A stretch of DNA of 64,000 nucleotides from Armatimonadota bacterium. Its GTDB lineage: Bacteria; Armatimonadota; Fimbriimonadia; Fimbriimonadales; GBS-DC. Below, in pieces: positions 2,406 through 49,395 of this stretch. Under the pieces are notes generated by a model, which saw only the letters and a program-made list of their open reading frames with translations, made no database searches and had not been told where the DNA came from. Position 1 is the first letter of the stretch, and every line of letters starts with the position of its first letter. A program made the translations under genes and the position numbers. The stretch lies in NCBI GenBank assembly GCA_037445735.1, contig JBBIJY010000010.1:3664-67663 (forward strand). Direction: 5' to 3'.

Positions 2406-4089
2406 ACAGCACAATCAGCAGGTCGGCGTCGTCCACCGCACCGTCACCGTTCACATCTTCAGGCAAGCCATTGCCCGACTGCCCGAAAGCGAACAGCACC
2501 ATCAGCAAATCGGCGTCGTCGATCTGATTGTCGCGGTTCGCGTCGCCGTTGATGAGCGTCCAGTTGACGCTGGTATTGGGCGCAAGGGTGAGCGTTTGCC
2601 GTCGGGAGAGCCAGCCCGGCACCCGCACGCGCACCGACGCCGTGCCGCTCAGCGCGGTGGCGACGGTGTATTGACCGTTTGCTTGCAGCACGGTCGTGGT
2701 GGCGTCGGTCTGCTGACCGCTCTGAAAACTGAACTGCGCTGTCTTGCCTGCTGGATCGGGCAGGTAATCGCTCAGAATGATTCGCCCTGTTAAAAACGGC
2801 GGCGCCTGCACGCGCTGAATACCGACCGCAGGAGTGTTATCGCTGCCCTGATTGACCGTGCTGATGGCGTACAGGCTGGCGTCGGGCGCGTCGATCAGCA
2901 GTTCGGGCTGCTCGTCTGCTTGGCTCAACCCACCCAGCGCGAGCGCGCCCATCAGCGAGCCATCGGGGCGCCACCATTGCAGGAACGGCTTCCAGCGCTC
3001 GGTGTCGGTCAGCTGGGCAATCAGCAGGGTGCAGGCGTTCGCGCTCGTGTGGACGCCCGCGACGGCGCGATAGACGCCACTGAGCGATTGCGAACCCATC
3101 AGGTTGCCGTCCGCATCGCCCAGCACAATAGCTGTCCATCGCGCGCTGGACGATTCGGCGTTCCCGGCAATCAACCAGCCCCTGCCCAGCGCGGTCAGCA
3201 CATCAGGGATCGAGTCGCCCGGCGCGTTGCTGATGGGCAGTTGCCAGAGCAATGTGCCGTCGGCTGCCAGGTGCATCAGCAGAAGTCGTGCCTGCTGTGC
3301 CGATGACTCCCAGACTGTGCCCAGCAGGTAGATCGTGCCATCGCTTGCCTGCGCCGAGCGCTCGGCATAGAACGGCAACAACAATTCCTGTTGAACTGTG
3401 CCCGTGTCGCTGAGCCACTGCAGCAGCGTTTGATCCCAGCGCTGCAGGATGCCATCAGGATCGGGCACACGCGCCATCAGCAGGCTTATGGTCGCGTTCA
3501 GGCGCAGGATGCCCAGCGGGGCACGGCTCCATGTCAGCGTCTGCGCCGGCGCGAAAAGATTCTGGGCGAGCTGCGTGCCGTTGCCATCAAACAGCAGCCG
3601 CGCATAGCCCAGCCAGCCCGTGCCATAGGCATGAAGCACCTCCACCCCGTTCGGGCGAACAATCAGCCGACGAACCACATCGTACTCGCCCAGATTGACC
3701 ATCGCTGACCAGAGCATCGTGCCGTCCGCTGACCAGCGCTGCACATAAGCCAGCGAGTCTCTGTCGGCGCGGGTGATGGCTAAGTAGAAGGAGCTATCGG
3801 ATGCAGCGGCAATCGCTTCGGCGTTATAGGATTGCCCCGATTCGCTGATGGTGCGCGCCCAGAGCAGGTCGCCCTGCGGGGAGTATTTCAGCACAGCGAC
3901 GCCATAATGCCCCGCGTCCATAATGTAGCGGGCGGCAATCAGCAGATTGCCCTGCGAGTCGACGGTGGCGACCTGCGGCAGGCAACCCCGCGAGCCGGAG
4001 GGCACAAACAGTCGGCTCCAGAGAACGCTCTGCGCGAACCCACCCTGCACGAGCAATATCAGACAGACCAGCCCTGTGAGCGTGCGCAT
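2380..4089 (-). CDS. Secreted repeat (beta-propeller-like) protein with C-terminal tandem dockerin-like Ca-binding repeats
   Basis: Signal peptide MRTLTGLVCLILLVQGGFAQ. The C-terminus GDANRDNQIDDADLLMVLFAFG ... DVNGDGAVDDADLLIVLFNFG matches the dockerin type I duplicated D-x-N-x-D-x-x-(I/V)-D-x-x-D-L pattern. Confidence 0.6.
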   Translation of the reverse strand: MRTLTGLVCLILLVQGGFAQSVLWSRLFVPSGSRGCLPQVATVDSQGNLLIAARYIMDAGHYGVAVLKYSPQGDLLWARTISESGQSYNAEAIAAASDSSFYLAITRADRDSLAYVQRWSADGTMLWSAMVNLGEYDVVRRLIVRPNGVEVLHAYGTGWLGYARLLFDGNGTQLAQNLFAPAQTLTWSRAPLGILRLNATISLLMARVPDPDGILQRWDQTLLQWLSDTGTVQQELLLPFYAERSAQASDGTIYLLGTVWESSAQQARLLLMHLAADGTLLWQLPISNAPGDSIPDVLTALGRGWLIAGNAESSSARWTAIVLGDADGNLMGSQSLSGVYRAVAGVHTSANACTLLIAQLTDTERWKPFLQWWRPDGSLMGALALGGLSQADEQPELLIDAPDASLYAISTVNQGSDNTPAVGIQRVQAPPFLTGRIILSDYLPDPAGKTAQFSFQSGQQTDATTTVLQANGQYTVATALSGTASVRVRVPGWLSRRQTLTLAPNTSVNWTLINGDANRDNQIDDADLLMVLFAFGQSGNGLPEDVNGDGAVDDADLLIVLFNFGSAGE

Positions 4090-4098
4090 ACCATGCTA

Positions 4099-5124
4099 TT
4101 ATAGCCCAAGTTGGGTGGCAACCGCCCAGTAGCCCTCCGATTGCAGGATGCTGGCGATTCGCTCCGCATCGCTTTGCGCGGCGCACAATGCCCCCTGCAC
4201 CGCGCCGCTGCCACACAGCAGCACGCGAAGTGCCCCCAGCGACTCCATACGCGCCCGCAATCGCAGGAGAGGTTCCAGCGCGTCCAGCACCACCGCCTCG
4301 AAATCGTTATGCAGGAAAGGCACGAGCTGTTCGGGCGTCTGAATCGCGCCCTGCTGGATGGCTCGCGCTAAGGTTTCTGTTGGGGCGAATTGGCGCGTCC
4401 GTCTTAACGACTCAAGGCGACTGGATAGCTGCGTGTACGCCCATGCGGTGGAGACGCCCACATCGGGCGGTCGAGCCAGCACCCACTCGAAGGGCGGCAG
4501 CGCGGGCAACGGTTGCACCTGCTCGCCCCGCCCACCCACACGCGCGCACGCCCCACTCAAAAAGAAGGGCACATCGGAGCCAAGCTGCCGGGCGATTGCC
4601 AGCAACTCCATTTCAGCCCCCTCACCCGTACCCTCTCCCCCACTGGGGGAGAGGGCTGAATGAACTCCCTCTCCCCGCTGGGGAGAGGGTTGGGGTGAGG
4701 GGTTATTCGCATGCGCAAGATGGGAAGCCCCCTCACCCGTACCCTCTCCCCCACTGGGGGAGAGGGTTTTATGGGACCTTCGCTCCATAAAATAGCGCAC
4801 GATTGCGGCGGCGTCGCTACTGCCTCCGCCGAGACCTCCCTGCGGCGGAATGCGCTTGATCAGGCGCACATGCCAGCCTGATCGCGCCGTCGCGCCCACC
4901 TGCTCCAGCGCCCGCCAGACCAGATTGCGCTCATCGGTCGGCACGGCGAAGCCCTCCACCTCCAGCGCAATCGGCGGCTGGCGATTCGGGATGGGCGTCA
5001 GAATCAGCGTATCGTGCAGGCTCAGCGTGTGCATCACGCTCGCGATGGTGTGGTAGCCATCCTCGCGACGCTCCAGCACCTCCAGTGTGAGGTTGATCTT
5101 GGCAGGCGCGTGCAGCTCAATCAT
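4099..5124 (-). CDS. ispE: 4-diphosphocytidyl-2-C-methyl-D-erythritol kinase, carrying a ~55 aa in-frame insertion derived from palindromic repeats
   Basis: N-terminus [24 protein letters not shown] is diagnostic of IspE (GHMP kinase). The 341 aa length exceeds the typical ~285 aa because of the segment [13 protein letters not shown]...[24 protein letters not shown] encoded by the 4617-4766 repeats. Confidence 0.85.
4617..4766. repeat. Three adjacent copies of a GC-rich nested palindromic element (CCCTCACCC-gta-CCCTCTCCCCC-act-GGGGGAGAGGG; CCCTCTCCCC-gct-GGGGAGAGGG-tt-GGGGTGAGGG) inside ispE
   Basis: Copies at 4617-4655 and 4728-4766 are identical; 4667-4702 is the complementary half. Related copies occur at 31008, 35353, 37275 and 48706. 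Confidence 0.85.
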
Positions 5125-6896
5125 TCTTCATCCAGCACAACCCGGATGTGCAGCTCGCGCAGCTGCTCCTCGCTCACGGGCGACGGCGCACCGAACATCA
5201 CATCGACCATCGCCGTGTTCTTGGGAAAGGCAATCACATTCCGAATCGTTTCGTCGCCCGATAGCAACATCACGAGGCGGTCGATGCCGGGCGCGATTCC
5301 ACCGTGCGGCGGTGCGCCATACTCGAACGCCTCCAGCAGATGCCCGAACCGCTCTTTGATCTCCTCATCGCTGTAGCCCAGCAGGTGAAAGATTTTGTCC
5401 TGCAGGTCGCGCCGATGGATACGGATGCTGCCGCTGGCAAGCTCGTTGCCGTTGCAGACCAGATCATAGCACTGGGCGCGAACCCTGCCCGGATCGGTGT
5501 CCAGCAGGGGGATGTCCTCCTCGCGCGGTGCGGTGAAGGGATGATGCGTCGGGTCCCAGCGGTTCTCCTTCTCGTTCCACTCCAGCAGGGGGAAGTCGAG
5601 AATCCATGCAAACGCCAGGAGGTCGGGGTCGGCGAGTTGCAGGCGTTCGCCCATCTGCTGGCGCAGGCGTCCAAGCGCATGGTTCGCAACGGCAGGCTGG
5701 TCAGCGACGATGCCAATCAGGTCGCCCTCTTTCGCGCCTGTGCGCTGGAGGATGCCCTGCAGCTCCTCTTCGCTCAAAAACTTGGCGATGGGCGAGCGGA
5801 TGCCTTCGGGCGTGAGCGCAATCGGAGCCAGCCCCTTCGCGCCGTACTGCTTCACAAACTCGCTCAGCTCGTCCCACTCCCGGCGCGAGTAGCCCGCACA
5901 GCCCGGGATGGCAATTGCCTTCACCACCCCGCCCGCTTCGATCACCGCGCGGAACGCCTGAAAGCCTGTCCCGCGCACCACATCAGTGAGATCGACCAGC
6001 TCCATGCCGAAGCGCAGGTCTGGCTTGTCCGTGCCGTAGCGTGCCATCGCCTCGTCGTAAGTGAGGCGCGGGAACGGTTTCAGCACGCGCTTCCCGGTGC
6101 AGTTCTCCACGATGCCGATAAACAGCTCCTCGATCAGGTTCAAAATATCGTCGCGCTCCACGAACGACATCTCCAGATCGAGCTGGGTGAACTCTGGCTG
6201 GCGGTCGGCGCGGGGGTCTTCGTCGCGGAAGCAGCGGGCAATCTGGAAGTAGCGCTCCACGCCCGCCACCATCAGCAGCTGCTTGAGTTGCTGGGGCGAC
6301 TGGGGCAGCGCGTAGAACTTGCCCGGATAGAGTCGGCTGGGCACGAGGTAGTCGCGGGCGCCTTCGGGCGTGCTCTTGATGAGGATGGGCGTCTCCACCT
6401 CCAGAAAGCCGCGCTCGGATAGAAAATCGCGAATATATTTGACCACGCGATGGCGCAGTTCGAGGCGGCGATACATCGCCGGGCGGCGCAGATCGAGATA
6501 GCGATACTTCAGGCGGAGGTTCTCGTCCACCTCCAGTCGCTCCTCATTCAGCGGGAAGGGCGGCGTGCGGGACGGGTTGAACACGGTGAGCGTATGCGCG
6601 AACACTTCGATCTCGCCGGTGGGCAGTTTGGGGTTCTCGGCGCCGGGTCGTCGGCGGCGCACCTCGCCTTCGATGCCGATGCAGCACTCCACGCGCAGGT
6701 CGCCCGCGCGCTCGTGCAGGGCGCGATCGATGGCGGGGTCGAACACCACCTGCACCAGCCCCGTGCGGTCGCGCATGTCGATAAAAATCAGCCCGCCCAG
6801 ATCGCGCACGCGATGCACCCAGCCGTTCAGGCGCACCGTCTGCCCCACATGCGCGGAACGCAACTCACCACAACAATGGGTTCGCTTCCAGCTCAT
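5121..6896 (-). CDS. aspS: Aspartyl-tRNA synthetase
   Basis: [46 protein letters not shown] aligns with the E. coli AspS N-terminus. Class II motifs [18 protein letters not shown] and [14 protein letters not shown] are present. The tracked ORF extends 98 codons further upstream, taken as spurious. The stop overlaps the ispE start by 4 nt. Confidence 0.95.
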
Positions 6897-10106: not shown

Positions 10107-11191
10107 CCCCTGCGTTGCATGAAGTCAAGCATAAAGTCGCGCAGTGCCTGCACGCCTTCGAGGGGCATGGCGTTATAGATCGAGGCGCGGCAGCCGCCGA
10201 CGGAGCGGTGTCCCTTCAGCTCGTACAGCCCGTTCGCCTGCGCCTCTTGCACAAACGCCTTCTCCAGCTCCTCGCTCGGCAGTCGCCAGGTCACATTCAT
10301 TACGGAGCGGCATTCGGGGTGCGCATGCCCGCGATAGAAGCCACCGCTCTGGTCGATCACCTCATACAGCAGGCTCGCCTTCTGGCGATTGAGCTGCTGC
10401 ATGCGTTCCAGCCCGCCAATCTCGTTCAGCAGCCAGCGCGTAACGAGCATCACGATATAGATGGCGAACACGGGTGGCGTGTTATACACCGATTGATGCT
10501 CGGCTTGCAGGCGATAATCGAGCATGGCGGGCAGATCGGGCGGCACACGCTCCAGCAGGTCCTCCCGAATAATCACGATGGTGACGCCAGCGGGTCCTGC
10601 GTTCTTCTGGGCGCCAGCGTAGAGGAGCGCGTAGCGTTCGATGGGCAGCGGGCGCGACAGGAAATCGGATGAGGCGTCGCACACCAGCGGCAGGTCGCCC
10701 ACAGGTGGCTCCTGCTGGAACTCCACGCCCTGAATCGTCTCGTTGGAGGTGAAATGCACATAGGCGGCGCTGGGATCGATGTCCAGTTCGTCGGGGCGTG
10801 GGGTTCGGGTGAAGTTCTCGTTTTTGCCTGACCACGCGATGCGCGCCCGCCCGACCTTGAGCGCCTCCTGAAACGCCTTCTCGCCCCACGAACCCGTGAG
10901 AATATAATCAGCCGAGCGGTCGCCCAGCAGGTTCATCGGCACCATCGCGAACTGCAGGCTCGCGCCACCCTGCAAAAACAGCACGCGATAATGAGCGGGG
11001 ATGTTCAGCAGCTGCCGCAGGTTCGCCTCCGTCTCCTGCAAAATGGCGTCGAACCATCGGGAGCGGTGGCTGATCTCCAGTACCGACATGCCGACGCCCG
11101 GCAGCGCCAGCAAATCGCGCTGCGCCTCCTGCAGCACGGGCAGCGGCAACACCGCCGGACCCGCCGAAAAGTTCCACACGCGCTCTGGCAT
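10103..11191 (-). CDS. serC: Phosphoserine aminotransferase
   Basis: 362 aa with the class V aminotransferase pattern, including FSAGPAVLP and YNTPPVFAIY segments typical of SerC. Confidence 0.85.
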   Translation of the reverse strand: MPERVWNFSAGPAVLPLPVLQEAQRDLLALPGVGMSVLEISHRSRWFDAILQETEANLRQLLNIPAHYRVLFLQGGASLQFAMVPMNLLGDRSADYILTGSWGEKAFQEALKVGRARIAWSGKNENFTRTPRPDELDIDPSAAYVHFTSNETIQGVEFQQEPPVGDLPLVCDASSDFLSRPLPIERYALLYAGAQKNAGPAGVTIVIIREDLLERVPPDLPAMLDYRLQAEHQSVYNTPPVFAIYIVMLVTRWLLNEIGGLERMQQLNRQKASLLYEVIDQSGGFYRGHAHPECRSVMNVTWRLPSEELEKAFVQEAQANGLYELKGHRSVGGCRASIYNAMPLEGVQALRDFMLDFMQRRG

Positions 11192-30863: not shown

Positions 30864-31007
30864 CCCCTGCCCTTCCTGAACGAATAAGATATTAGCATGG
30901 TTCCTTCCTCCTTCTGCCCTCTGCGAAGCGGGGCAGGGTTTATATCCGCTTACGGGTGGGTTGAGCCCCTTCAGCCGTACCTTCCGCCTTAGCGGGGCGA
31001 ATGAAAA

Positions 31008-31050
31008 CCCTCTCCCCCACAGCGTGGGAGAGAGGGCACGAGGGTGAGGG
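31008..31050. repeat. Intergenic copy of the GC-rich palindromic element (CCCTCTCCCCC-acagcg-TGGGAGAGAGGG-cac-GAGGGTGAGGG)
   Basis: Lies between the ECF sigma start (30863) and the flotillin stop (31062); same arms as the intragenic copies. Confidence 0.8.
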
Positions 31051-31061
31051 CAAGGTCAGCC

Positions 31062-35297: not shown

Positions 35298-35352
35298 ATA
35301 AGCAACCCGGTCGCAGCAGATGAAATGGATCGGACCGTCCAGAACGAATAGA

Positions 35353-35382
35353 CCCCCTCTCCCACAGCATCGGGAGAGGGGG
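35353..35382. repeat. Intergenic palindromic element copy (CCCCCTCTCCC-acagcatc-GGGAGAGGGGG), likely a bidirectional terminator between convergent sthA and the PEP-CTERM gene
   Basis: Perfect 11-bp inverted repeat with 8-nt loop located between the sthA stop (35297) and the stop of the minus-strand gene (35402). Confidence 0.6.
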
Positions 35383-35401
35383 AATGAGCGCTTCGCGAGA
35401 C

Positions 35402-36157: not shown

Positions 36158-36472
36158 ATGTATGCGATTGTTCAAACGGGCGGCAAGCAGTATCGCGCGG
36201 AGCCAGGCGCCATCATCAGTGTGGAAAAAATCGAGGCGGAAGCGGGCAGCCAGATCGAGCTGACGGAGGTGCTGCTGATTCGCACCGACGAGGGTCTGCG
36301 CGTGGGCGCGCCTTACATCGAGGGCGCGAAGGTGATTGCCGAAGTGGTACGACAGGGCAAGGGTCCCAAGATTATCGGGTTCAAATACAAGCCGAAGAAG
36401 AACGAGCGTCGGCGCTGGGGTCATCGCCAGCAGCTGACCTGGCTGCGCATCAAGGAGATTGTCGCAGGCTAA
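36158..36472 (+). CDS. rplU: 50S ribosomal protein L21
   Basis: [26 protein letters not shown]...[22 protein letters not shown] matches bL21; GGAGG RBS upstream. No rpmA follows. Tracked ORF 36017..36472 has a spurious 5' extension. Confidence 0.9.
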
Positions 36473-37653
36473 AGCCGGGTTGCCAGCAAGCCTGCGGCGC
36501 AGCCGGCGAGGAAGTAGGCGCGTTCCGCATCGGCGTCGCGCCCCATCGTGGTCAGGATCGCCCCCTGATCGAGGAGCCATTCCAGCACGGCATCGGCATC
36601 GATAATGTGCAGGGTGTGGCGATCTGGTATCGCCGCGCCCTGCAAAGCGTTCAGCACCCGCTCCATCTGGTCAGCGGGCAGTTGCGGCACCGCGACCGTG
36701 CAGGGCAGGAGCGCGACCTGGCTCAAAACGGTCAGTGAGTGGTGGCTCACGCCCTGATGGCGTGCGCGGGTGTCGCCGAAGCTGATGCGCAGCGCTGCGA
36801 TGGGCTGACCGCCAAGTGTGCCGATGGCGTTCAGCGCCAGCCCCTGATCGAGACCCGAAAAGCCCCAGCGCGTACCCGTGCCCAGATTGCCCGGACCCTG
36901 ACCGACCACCGCGAAATCGGCGTTCAGCGCGTGGCGGGCGAGCAATAACGCGCTATAGAGGTTCACCGCCTCCAGCTCGCCCCCGAACGCCTGCCCGACT
37001 GTGATGGTTCCTGCCAGCCAGCCGCGCTCCGTGAGCCAGCTCACCACCTCGCTGAAGCCGAGCGCGAGCGCCGCCGAATCGGTCATGATGTAGACGATTC
37101 GGGCGTCGGGGCGCGCGTAGCGAATCGCGCCCACCACAGGAATCAGATGGCTGTGCAGCAGGATCGCGACGGTGGGCATCCCCTTCAGTGTGCCTGTGAG
37201 CGCGTCGGGATAGCGATTCTCGGCGGCGGGCGCGGCGAACTGCAACGGCGTGTAGCGCAACCGCATCAGCAGCTCCCCCTCACCCGTACCCTCTCCCTCG
37301 CTGGGGGAGAGGGGCAGATGGCTCCCTTTCCCCTCTGGGGAGAGGGTTGGGGTGAGGGGTTGCATCGGCACGACGGCAGGCTCTGCCCCCTCACCCATGC
37401 CCTCTCCCCCGCACGCGGCGGAGAGGGTGGATAGCGCGGCAATCACAAAATCGTAGCCGCCAGTGCCCAGCTTCAGCGCGGTCGCCGTGGTGTTGAGCAG
37501 CACAGTATCGCCCGCCTGCAGGCGTCCATTAAGCGTGATGTAGTTGAGCGCGTTGCGCCGCTCCGCATCGGTGCGCACCTGCAGGTACTGCACGCCCGAC
37601 CGCTCGCGCACCACCTGCTCCACAATCCCGACCGCTTTGTAAAGCACGCTCAC
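36469..37653 (-). CDS. Conserved hypothetical protein (possibly DUF3866-like) carrying an in-frame palindromic-repeat insertion
   Basis: N-terminal [34 protein letters not shown] block. The internal segment [46 protein letters not shown] is encoded by repeat copies at 37275-37429. Family assignment is from memory and unverified. Confidence 0.45.
37275..37429. repeat. Three copies/halves of the GC-rich palindromic element inside the 36469..37653 CDS
   Basis: CCCCCTCACCCGTACCCTCTCCCTCGCTGGGGGAGAGGGG / CCCCTCTGGGGAGAGGGTTGGGGTGAGGGG / CCCCCTCACCCATGCCCTCTCCCCCGCACGCGGCGGAGAGGGTGG. Confidence 0.85.
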
Positions 37654-48534: not shown

Positions 48535-49395
48535 TCAGCGGCTCTCCAGCAGGAGAGCGGTCTGGGCGAGCGCGTAGAAAGCAGCCATCTCGGTGCGCAG
48601 GACACGATCCCCCAGTGAGACGGGGATACAGGCATATTCGGAGATCATCGGTTCCCGCTCGTGGGGGGTGAAACCGCCCTCCGGACCGATGATGAGCGTA
48701 AGCGCCCTCACCCCCAGCCCCTCTCCCCCGCTGGGGGAGAGGGGGGAAGCACCCCCTTCTCCCGAAGCTTCGGGAGAAGGGGGCTGGGGGGATGAGGGCA
48801 CTAACAACTGGCTCAAAACCGCACTCAACAGCGGAACTCCCTCATGTTCGTCCAGCAGCAGGCGCGGATGCGGCAGGCGCTCCATCGCCGAGAACCAGTC
48901 GCCCACAATCTGGATGGCAGGGTAGCGCGCGCGACAGGCGACCTCCGCCTCTTCGCGGGCGATTGACTGCCAGCGTCGCTCCCGTGTTGCTCGCTTATCC
49001 GCATCGAGCGTCACCAGCGAGCGCTCGGCAGGTGCAAATAAAATCTGCACCGCTCCGCCTGCCGTGCAGAGGCGCACCACCTGCTCCGCCTTCTCCGCGC
49101 GCACCATCGCCTGCAAAATATACACTTCTATCGGCAGCTCGGTTGCCAGCTGCTCACGCTCCACGACGGTGAATCGCACTGGATGGGCTGCCGATTGCAA
49201 CCGCACATGGTACGCCCAGCCCGTGTTGTCCAGCAGGCAGATGATGTCGCCCTCGCGCAGACGCAGCACATGGCGCACCTGATGCGCAATATCAGGCGGC
49301 AACACGCCCGTCTCCAGCGTTTCAGGCGGCACAAAGAAGCGCGGTAGCCCCCGCGCGCTCAGCCCTTCGGGCGACGAAACACGGCGGCGACCCAT
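48535..49395 (-). CDS. rsmE: 16S rRNA (uracil1498-N3)-methyltransferase RsmE with in-frame palindromic-repeat insertion
   Basis: LPRFFVPPETL N-terminus and C-terminal SPOUT knot LIIGPEGGFTPHEREPMISEYACIPVSLGDRVLRTEMAAFYAL. The extra segment [31 protein letters not shown] is encoded by the repeats at 48706-48798. Confidence 0.8.
   Translation of the reverse strand: MGRRRVSSPEGLSARGLPRFFVPPETLETGVLPPDIAHQVRHVLRLREGDIICLLDNTGWAYHVRLQSAAHPVRFTVVEREQLATELPIEVYILQAMVRAEKAEQVVRLCTAGGAVQILFAPAERSLVTLDADKRATRERRWQSIAREEAEVACRARYPAIQIVGDWFSAMERLPHPRLLLDEHEGVPLLSAVLSQLLVPSSPQPPSPEASGEGGASPLSPSGGEGLGVRALTLIIGPEGGFTPHEREPMISEYACIPVSLGDRVLRTEMAAFYALAQTALLLESR
48706..48798. repeat. Two nested palindromic element copies inside rsmE
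   Basis: CCCTCACCCCCAGCCCCTCTCCCCCGCTGGGGGAGAGGGGGG and CCCCCTTCTCCCGAAGCTTCGGGAGAAGGGGGCTGGGGGGATGAGGG. Confidence 0.85.

Follow-up and report, generated by a model that had tools for sequence, protein, structure and literature searches.

In-frame palindromic repeats as such are already known from bacterial genes. Rickettsia palindromic elements (RPEs), of about 100–150 nt, lie in frame in functional or essential genes and also occur in intergenic DNA. REPIN-RAYT systems, reportedly described by Bertels and Rainey in 2011, are said to be extragenic and inherited vertically within a lineage, and the earlier descriptions of BoxC/PIT repeats are reportedly those of Bachellier (1990s) and of Hoyne and Maher (2000). 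The motif in question, 5'-CCCTCNCCC N3-6 GGGNGAGGG N3 GGGNGAGGG-3' (Holder et al. 2015, PMC4666352), was first named BoxC in E. coli in the 1990s and then PIT (potential intrastrand triplex) element in 2000, and is referred to here as BoxC/PIT/TMECO. The 23 copies of E. coli K-12 are all intergenic, every inverted pair in E. coli joins one type A unit to one of type B, the two differing in the second loop, and 3610 copies were counted in 262 proteobacterial genomes, with no link to transposons, phages, or plasmids (PMC4666352). A triplex was formed by the single strand in vitro and was not detectable in vivo; sequence variability is raised around the copies, where instability has been reported, and palindromic pairs in E. 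coli have had small parts deleted with the hairpin still able to form (PMC4666352). Two further groups of small repeats have been found inside genes. GTAG- or CGTC-tagged REPs are hairpins of 20–40 nt, often arranged as inverted dimers, that occur inside known genes, often those for repair, replication, and tRNA synthetases, where they encode 20–80 extra residues, with clusters up to 82 (Di Nocera et al. 2013, PMC3733652), and enterobacterial RU/ERIC elements have likewise been reported intragenically (Delihas 2007, PMC2759123). For BoxC/PIT/TMECO itself, a literature search outside subscription journals found no report of copies inside genes or beyond Proteobacteria and cyanobacteria, and the location of a BoxC-type unit inside genes and outside these groups is to that extent what is new here.

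The DNA analyzed is a 64-kb stretch of an Armatimonadota genome (hereafter the window), in which a 156-nt array (52 codons; 4615–4770, minus strand) lies in frame within the ispE coding sequence (4099–5124, minus strand). The array consists of three units of ~40 nt in direct, inverted, and direct order. Unit 1 (4618–4657, pattern match 4619–4655, minus strand) has the BoxC/TMECO orientation on the coding strand and a TAC linker; unit 2 (4663–4703, pattern match 4667–4701, plus strand) carries a TTG linker and forms an inverted doublet with unit 1; unit 3 (4729–4768, pattern match 4730–4766, minus strand) is a direct repeat of unit 1 at a spacing of 111 nt. Over 41 nt, units 1 and 3 do not differ; over 48 nt, their identity is 94%. 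The unit takes the form CCCCTCACCC-GTA-CCCTCTCCCCC-ACT-GGGGGAGAGGG, or, on the G-rich strand, CCCTCTCCC(CC)-AGT-(GG)GGGAGAGGG-TAC-GGGTGAGGG, and the hairpin pattern has four matches in the window against none in 100 dinucleotide-preserving shuffles. Very stable folds are predicted for the array, with −115 kcal/mol and z = −8.25 for single-stranded RNA and z = −8.0 for single-stranded DNA. No curated RNA family applies, since Rfam at gathering thresholds matched only a tRNA and nothing at the repeats, and a terminator and promoter scan of 4000–5300 gave counts not above those in shuffled sequence. A short AT-rich inverted repeat, TTTTATGG...CCATAAAA (4767–4792), adjoins unit 3 inside ispE and is partly kept in a sister genome (TTTTGTGG...CCATAAAA); it could be an insertion-site remnant or a chance occurrence.

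Judged by its sequence, the ispE element is a BoxC/PIT/TMECO-type repeat. A search with the BoxC/TMECO pattern returned four matches in the window, the three ispE units and one unit in a gene for a DUF3866 protein, compared to none in shuffles. Unit 2, with its 5-nt loop, fits the published pattern strictly, while units 1 and 3 and the DUF3866 unit match as CCCTCNCCC-N7-GGGNGAGGG-N3-GGGNGAGGG, the 7 nt between the 9-mers being due to a stem of 11 bp with a 3-nt loop. In the third arm, GGGTGAGGG, both the register and the one mismatch correspond to those of the published "mm" types; folding was computed for the hairpin. Each unit comprises a C-rich arm, a hairpin of 10–11 bp, and a further arm with the potential to occupy the hairpin groove as a triplex. 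The doublets combine a unit with the TAC linker and one with the TTG linker, which is the same kind of pairing as that of type A and type B. The E. coli copy between yjdP and phnP carries arms identical to those of the ispE units, and with a Leclercia copy as query, 5416 of the 5426 complete E. coli genomes gave matches, at a median of 18 places per genome and almost all of them chromosomal. The initial annotation had read the behavior of the element correctly and missed its identity.

The gene that hosts the array is apparently functional. Its open reading frame (ORF), which overlaps the upstream aspS ORF by 4 nt, scores 163.5 bits against TIGR00154 (cut-off 138.7) and contains both Pfam domains, GHMP_kinases_N and GHMP_kinases_C. 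The frame is intact and encodes 341 aa, compared to 282 aa in the orthologue of bacterium HR15 (P0004), and the TIGR00154 match is split into two pieces with ~55 unmatched residues between them. Similarly, the solved IspE structures 4dxl and 3pyd align to residues 3–110 and 173–331 of the window protein, with only ~13 residues between the two aligned blocks in the crystal chains, so that a gap of 49–55 residues is flanked on both sides by alignment to the IspE profile or to PDB chains. An AlphaFold2 model built from a 25-sequence alignment (mean pLDDT 85.8, pTM 0.82) has pLDDT below 50 and coil or no secondary structure for residues 126–165 only. These sit between helix 100–119, which follows the phosphate-binding motif, and helix 168–181, which precedes GSDVPFF. 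On this model, the insert would form a disordered loop, and the GHMP fold would stay intact. Values of dN/dS between the window and its sister genome (0.32 for ispE, 0.20 for the DUF3866 gene, and 0.37 for rsmE, the other two genes that hold repeats) further indicate that all three are under purifying selection and not decaying. The insert is most likely translated with the gene as a Gly/Glu/Pro/Ser-rich loop of ~50 residues. Each unit is stop-free in five of the six frames, the only closed one reading G*G (GGG TGA GGG), and the whole array is open in three of six, which makes translation compatibility a consequence of unit composition. Several proposals of the initial annotation are borne out by these data: three GC-rich palindromic copies in frame within ispE, a preserved frame that lengthens the protein to 341 aa, compatibility with translation, and an insertion that maps onto a loop, here between two helices, with the fold predicted to be undisturbed.

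The repeat is not confined to ispE. A profile built from the units and run with nhmmer found 11 units at five sites in the 64-kb window and nothing else, and eight of these units, at three of the five sites, lie in frame inside genes (ispE, the DUF3866 gene, and rsmE). The DUF3866 gene (36469–37653, minus strand) holds a second three-unit array (37273–37432, minus strand) that is also direct-inverted-direct, in frame, and of 111-nt period, and rsmE (48535–49395, minus strand) holds an in-frame inverted doublet (48702–48794, minus strand). The two intergenic copies are an inverted doublet, one of whose units is degenerate, which separates the stop codon of a Band_7 gene from the start codon of a sigma-factor gene (30962–31052), and a hairpin-only copy between two convergent genes (35347–35388), of which the sister genome has an orthologous copy (L124:5047-5087). 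This is the distribution over two other genes and two intergenic sites that the initial annotation had listed, and all of its factual statements are correct. At both ispE and DUF3866 the direct units carry TAC and the inverted units TTG linkers, while the spacers of the two arrays resemble each other only weakly, which argues that these arrays are not recent copies of one master. A GAATGA-like core recurs in the spacer after the first unit of the doublet at three sites (4655–4667, 30999–31008, and 35380–35388; CTGAATGAAC, GCGAATGAAA, and GGGAATGAGC), and its retention suggests that the doublet may be copied as one entity together with its spacer.

By IspE homologues, the window belongs in Armatimonadota, close to bacterium HR15 and Fimbriimonadales genomes. 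The IspE orthologues P0004–P0012 (51–58% identity) have no insert at this loop, and the DUF3866 insert is likewise absent in outgroups. Together with the 11 units spread over genic and intergenic sites, this agrees with the earlier reading of the insert as a DNA-level repeat instead of an ancestral protein linker. That IspE has an ancestral or positively selected low-complexity linker here, or that the segment is removed after transcription in the manner of an intron or intein, is hardly credible: loop length does vary in many orthologues, but the insert is absent in the nearest outgroups, the same DNA unit is found in intergenic DNA and in unrelated genes, the DNA is palindromic, no Rfam family matches at the repeats, and ~50 aa free of intein motifs fall well short of the size of any intein or group I or II intron. 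Intein, intron, and ancestral linker were accordingly rejected on size, outgroup absence, and intergenic copies.

A sister genome (GCA_037444405.1, IspE P0001; 91–95% nucleotide identity over the compared loci) reveals that close relatives differ in presence and copy number; the initial annotation had proposed to look for presence/absence polymorphism. Its ispE is syntenic, is 91% identical at the nucleotide level, and contains one unit compared to three, the difference being exactly 111 nt (37 codons), i.e., the spacing between units 1 and 3. Its DUF3866 gene (95% nucleotide identity) is also exactly 111 nt shorter with one unit compared to three, and this single unit is a chimera of the first and last units of the window array. 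In rsmE, the sister is missing 69 nt and only the outer arms are left (CCCTCATCCC...GGGTGAGGG). A more distant rsmE orthologue (P0243, 66% identity) retains the doublet, so that the 69-nt change is a deletion in the sister, with the same outcome as the palindromic-pair deletions reported in E. coli (PMC4666352). All three indels (111, 111, and 69 nt) are multiples of three, and on this comparison the copy number of the array appears to change in 37-codon steps. The direction of the two 111-nt changes is less uniform, as the evidence from the two loci points opposite ways. The sister's ispE unit differs at 5 of 41 positions from the identical units 1 and 3, which favors a duplication or gene conversion that took place recently in the window's own lineage, while the DUF3866 change would fit a deletion between direct units. 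The indels that can be polarized or interpreted fit recombination or slippage as well as insertion.

These same features bear on whether the repeat moves as a transposon. A non-autonomous, REPIN- or MITE-like element could be at work, in which a RAYT or an IS200/IS605-type single-strand transposase acts in trans on an inverted doublet of ~111 nt, and the doublet enters units already present or lands next to them, converting one unit into three at ispE and DUF3866 in the window lineage. The inverted-doublet architecture is a REPIN hallmark, the 111-nt module size is shared by two loci, ispE units 1 and 3 are identical with the sister's unit diverged, and the single-strand hairpins are strong (z about −8). 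A MITE would have terminal inverted repeats plus a target-site duplication; the doublets give inverted ends, and at the junctions in ispE, DUF3866, and rsmE no such duplication can be seen, as IS200-type chemistry would predict. The informative indels fall inside the repeats. Against this, alignment of the units shows no conserved GTAG or CGTC adjoining the hairpin, the three preceding bases being GTA, CAA, ATG, CAG, or GTG; Holder et al. report no transposon link (PMC4666352); the weakly similar spacers of the ispE and DUF3866 arrays do not fit recent copying from one master; and in rsmE it was the sister that lost sequence. We consider transposition of this kind unlikely. No transposase or donor copy was seen in the 64-kb window, whose ORFs were scanned in part. 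The initial description of the element as a mobile, selfish, structured repeat stands for structure and for compatibility with translation, while mobility and selfishness are inferences.

Conversely, the units might not be mobile at all and might arise and multiply on the spot by replication errors that hairpins or triplexes provoke (template switching, slippage, or gene conversion), with the likeness across phyla reflecting convergent structural constraints. Copy-number steps of one repeat length, an internal deletion that keeps a hairpin, the instability reported around TMECO sites (PMC4666352), and a different array of opposite orientation in the same ispE loop of another lineage would all be consistent with such a process. 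Near-identity over ~37 nt in at least 10 phyla is nevertheless hard to obtain by convergence, and the ispE and DUF3866 sites, being absent in outgroups, need some seeding event, which leaves a purely local origin quite improbable. A more trivial possibility is that assembly of a metagenome-assembled genome (MAG) produced the three-unit arrays artificially, the true state being the single unit found in the sister. Assembly across palindromic repeats is difficult, a single assembly is the source of both three-unit arrays, and the 341-aa IspE of the window was not found in a collection of 5.8 billion proteins, where the best match has 79% identity. However, the extra 111 nt holds unique spacers and an inverted unit instead of copies of the flanks, at both loci the frame is kept and the length is divisible by three, and comparable in-frame arrays occur in independent assemblies and cultured isolates. 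The DUF3866 protein is, moreover, itself deposited with its array included (P0121, 100% identity), and we regard an artefact as very improbable. RsmE is also present in the collection (P0241, 256 aa, 100% identity over 90% of the query). As these neighbors are present and IspE is missing, the depositors' pipeline may have called ispE differently, and the gene may have been skipped, shortened, or flagged because of its insert.

We also scanned one genome per species with the pattern CCCTCACCC-N3-CCCTCTCCCC-N2-8-GGGGAGAGGG. Among the matches listed, BoxC-type copies occur in Alpha-, Beta-, and Gammaproteobacteria, Desulfobacterota, Myxococcota, Verrucomicrobiota, Planctomycetota, Acidobacteriota, Chloroflexota, Atribacterota, Omnitrophota, Rokubacteria, and one genome of the candidate phyla radiation (CPR). 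The arrangement of ~37 nt is nearly identical in at least 10 phyla, and this breadth indicates that the BoxC-type element is not private to the Armatimonadota lineage. Example loci, from the series L003–L122, are L005:5785-5823, L021:5040-5074, L041:6065-6100, L071:321-356, and L100. A GTA-linker variant, CCCTCACCCGTACCCTCTCCC, was tried as a lineage-specific probe and rejected, having many soil and sediment sample matches among those listed. Predicted viral contigs, too, often carry the motif (among the matches listed); the one multi-copy contig examined, the 14,014-nt IMG/VR contig L321, carries three units between genes (4964–4998, 6154–6188, and 10652–10686) in a GTA-like head-tail cluster with terminase, portal, capsid, and a 1275-aa tail protein, and with this contig GTA-like and its units intergenic, we make no claim that phages carry BoxC.

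Among the 128 copies screened from the matches listed, 52 lie in an open frame that reaches at least 60 codons on either side. Twenty flagged frames were tested with Pfam and counted only if domains were found on both sides of the repeat. Hosts identified in this way are Mfd in a Bordetella MAG, VgrG in an isolate of Stutzerimonas stutzeri, an ABC transporter, UvrB, HrpB, and an AMP-binding enzyme in Verrucomicrobiota, LigA and a PSCyt/PSD protein in Planctomycetota, and IleRS in both a Methylibium MAG and an isolate of Sphingomonas hominis (the ten loci together: L004:1065-4649(-), L021:3173-6157(-), L045:2735-5032(-), L117:2893-6399(+), L093:622-2310(+), L043:2802-5273(+), L051:1371-4046(-), L005:4529-6676(+), L062:2-4003(+), and L079:3007-4356(-)). 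Several of the tested frames, L015, L032, L066, L072, and L075 among them, had no Pfam domain or domains on a single side and were left out, several being spurious frames. Since Pfam-flanked copies come from several phyla, and two of the ten hosts are cultured isolates, in-frame residence of the BoxC motif is widespread and not an artefact of metagenome assembly. Within Armatimonadota, IspE orthologues carry similar GC-rich repeat inserts at no fewer than four different loops (alignment columns 47–100, 115–150, 178–225, 275–340, and 415–427). At the DNA level these include BoxC-type units: one orthologue has three direct units in the same loop as the window, in the opposite orientation and with another period (P0002; L249:10357-10556), and another has two doublets at two other loops (P0029; L248:10192-10440). 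Such differences in loop and orientation imply that ispE has been hit repeatedly and that several of its loops are permissive. A stronger generalization, that BoxC/TMECO is a pan-bacterial element present in at least 10 phyla and regularly residing in frame in conserved or essential genes (ispE, rsmE, mfd, ligA, uvrB, ileS, hrpB, and others), is put forward tentatively, and we would sooner bet against it than for it. If true, it would imply a widely shared and still undescribed way of generating or mobilizing a ~37-nt sequence, and it would mean that the contribution of such repeats to disordered loops in bacterial proteins has been underrated.

Taken together, these results very probably reflect a BoxC/PIT/TMECO-type array that lies in frame in a loop of IspE, is translated as a disordered loop, and was seeded by genome-wide spread of the repeat with subsequent changes in length. 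In the proposed scenario, a BoxC-type family with no transposase linked to it would spread through the genome, and its genic copies would persist only if their length keeps the frame, the frame read is stop-free, and the site is a permissive surface loop. The array would be transcribed and translated with ispE, and a disordered loop of ~50 residues would spare the GHMP fold, making its presence close to neutral. Recombination or replication slippage between direct units would then change array length in whole-codon steps of 111 nt, and arrays could also shrink by deletion to their outer arms. Counting against this explanation are the missing IspE entry in the protein collection, the invariably intergenic location of BoxC in E. 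coli K-12, the negative outcome for a donor copy, transposase, or target-site duplication at the sites compared, the opposing evidence on the direction of the two 111-nt changes, and a triplex that was not detectable in vivo (PMC4666352).

Should the intragenic habit prove general, BoxC-type repeats would time and again give rise to length variation and disordered loops in core enzymes, and in GC-rich genomes they would in practice endanger gene calling and the flagging of pseudogenes. Their positions would, moreover, chart naturally permissive loops, of which IspE has at least four. Comparisons of filled and empty sites could address how a unit can be identical across phyla with no known mobilizing enzyme.

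Compared to described systems, the window element resembles REPIN-RAYT systems in having an inverted doublet as the apparent replicating or persisting unit, a strong single-strand hairpin, and no evident terminal inverted repeats or target duplications. REPINs are, however, lineage-bound, whereas the BoxC motif is shared by many phyla, and no cognate transposase was identified for the window element. RU/ERIC elements are similar as small structured repeats with open frames that sometimes extend or interrupt genes, but they are MITE-like, 103–168 nt in length, and belong to a different sequence family. The intragenic REPs share hairpin repeats in frame and inverted dimers, while BoxC units differ by their third arm and the window units have no GTAG/CGTC tag and no known RAYT link. 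In behavior, the analogy with RPEs drawn by the initial annotation holds, as the ispE repeats are in frame in an essential gene, add a peptide at a tolerated site, and have intergenic copies too. Lineage and base composition are nonetheless unrelated, the window element being GC-rich and built into arrays from a 40-nt module, and since the unit is already an exact match to BoxC, we do not claim RPE membership. The case had also been called remarkable for an essential gene; the gene, one of the isoprenoid pathway, is indeed essential, but in-frame palindromic repeats are already documented outside Rickettsia (PMC3733652), and ispE is best described as a real but moderately unusual colonization of a gene by a widespread repeat. 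The closest likeness is to BoxC/PIT/TMECO, with which the window element shares unit sequence, arm order, an interspersed multi-copy distribution, inverted doublets of two linker subtypes, and copies and flanks that vary between close relatives, with no transposase linked in either. It differs in its host, an armatimonadote instead of a proteobacterium, in its stems of 10–11 bp, in its three-unit arrays of 111-nt period, and in location, three of five sites being genic and in frame compared to always intergenic in E. coli K-12. The intergenic-only location is thus a property of the E. coli copies and not of the BoxC sequence definition, and the ispE array joins two hitherto separate literatures, that on BoxC and triplexes (intergenic, genome instability) and that on in-frame palindromic repeats (RPEs and intragenic REPs).
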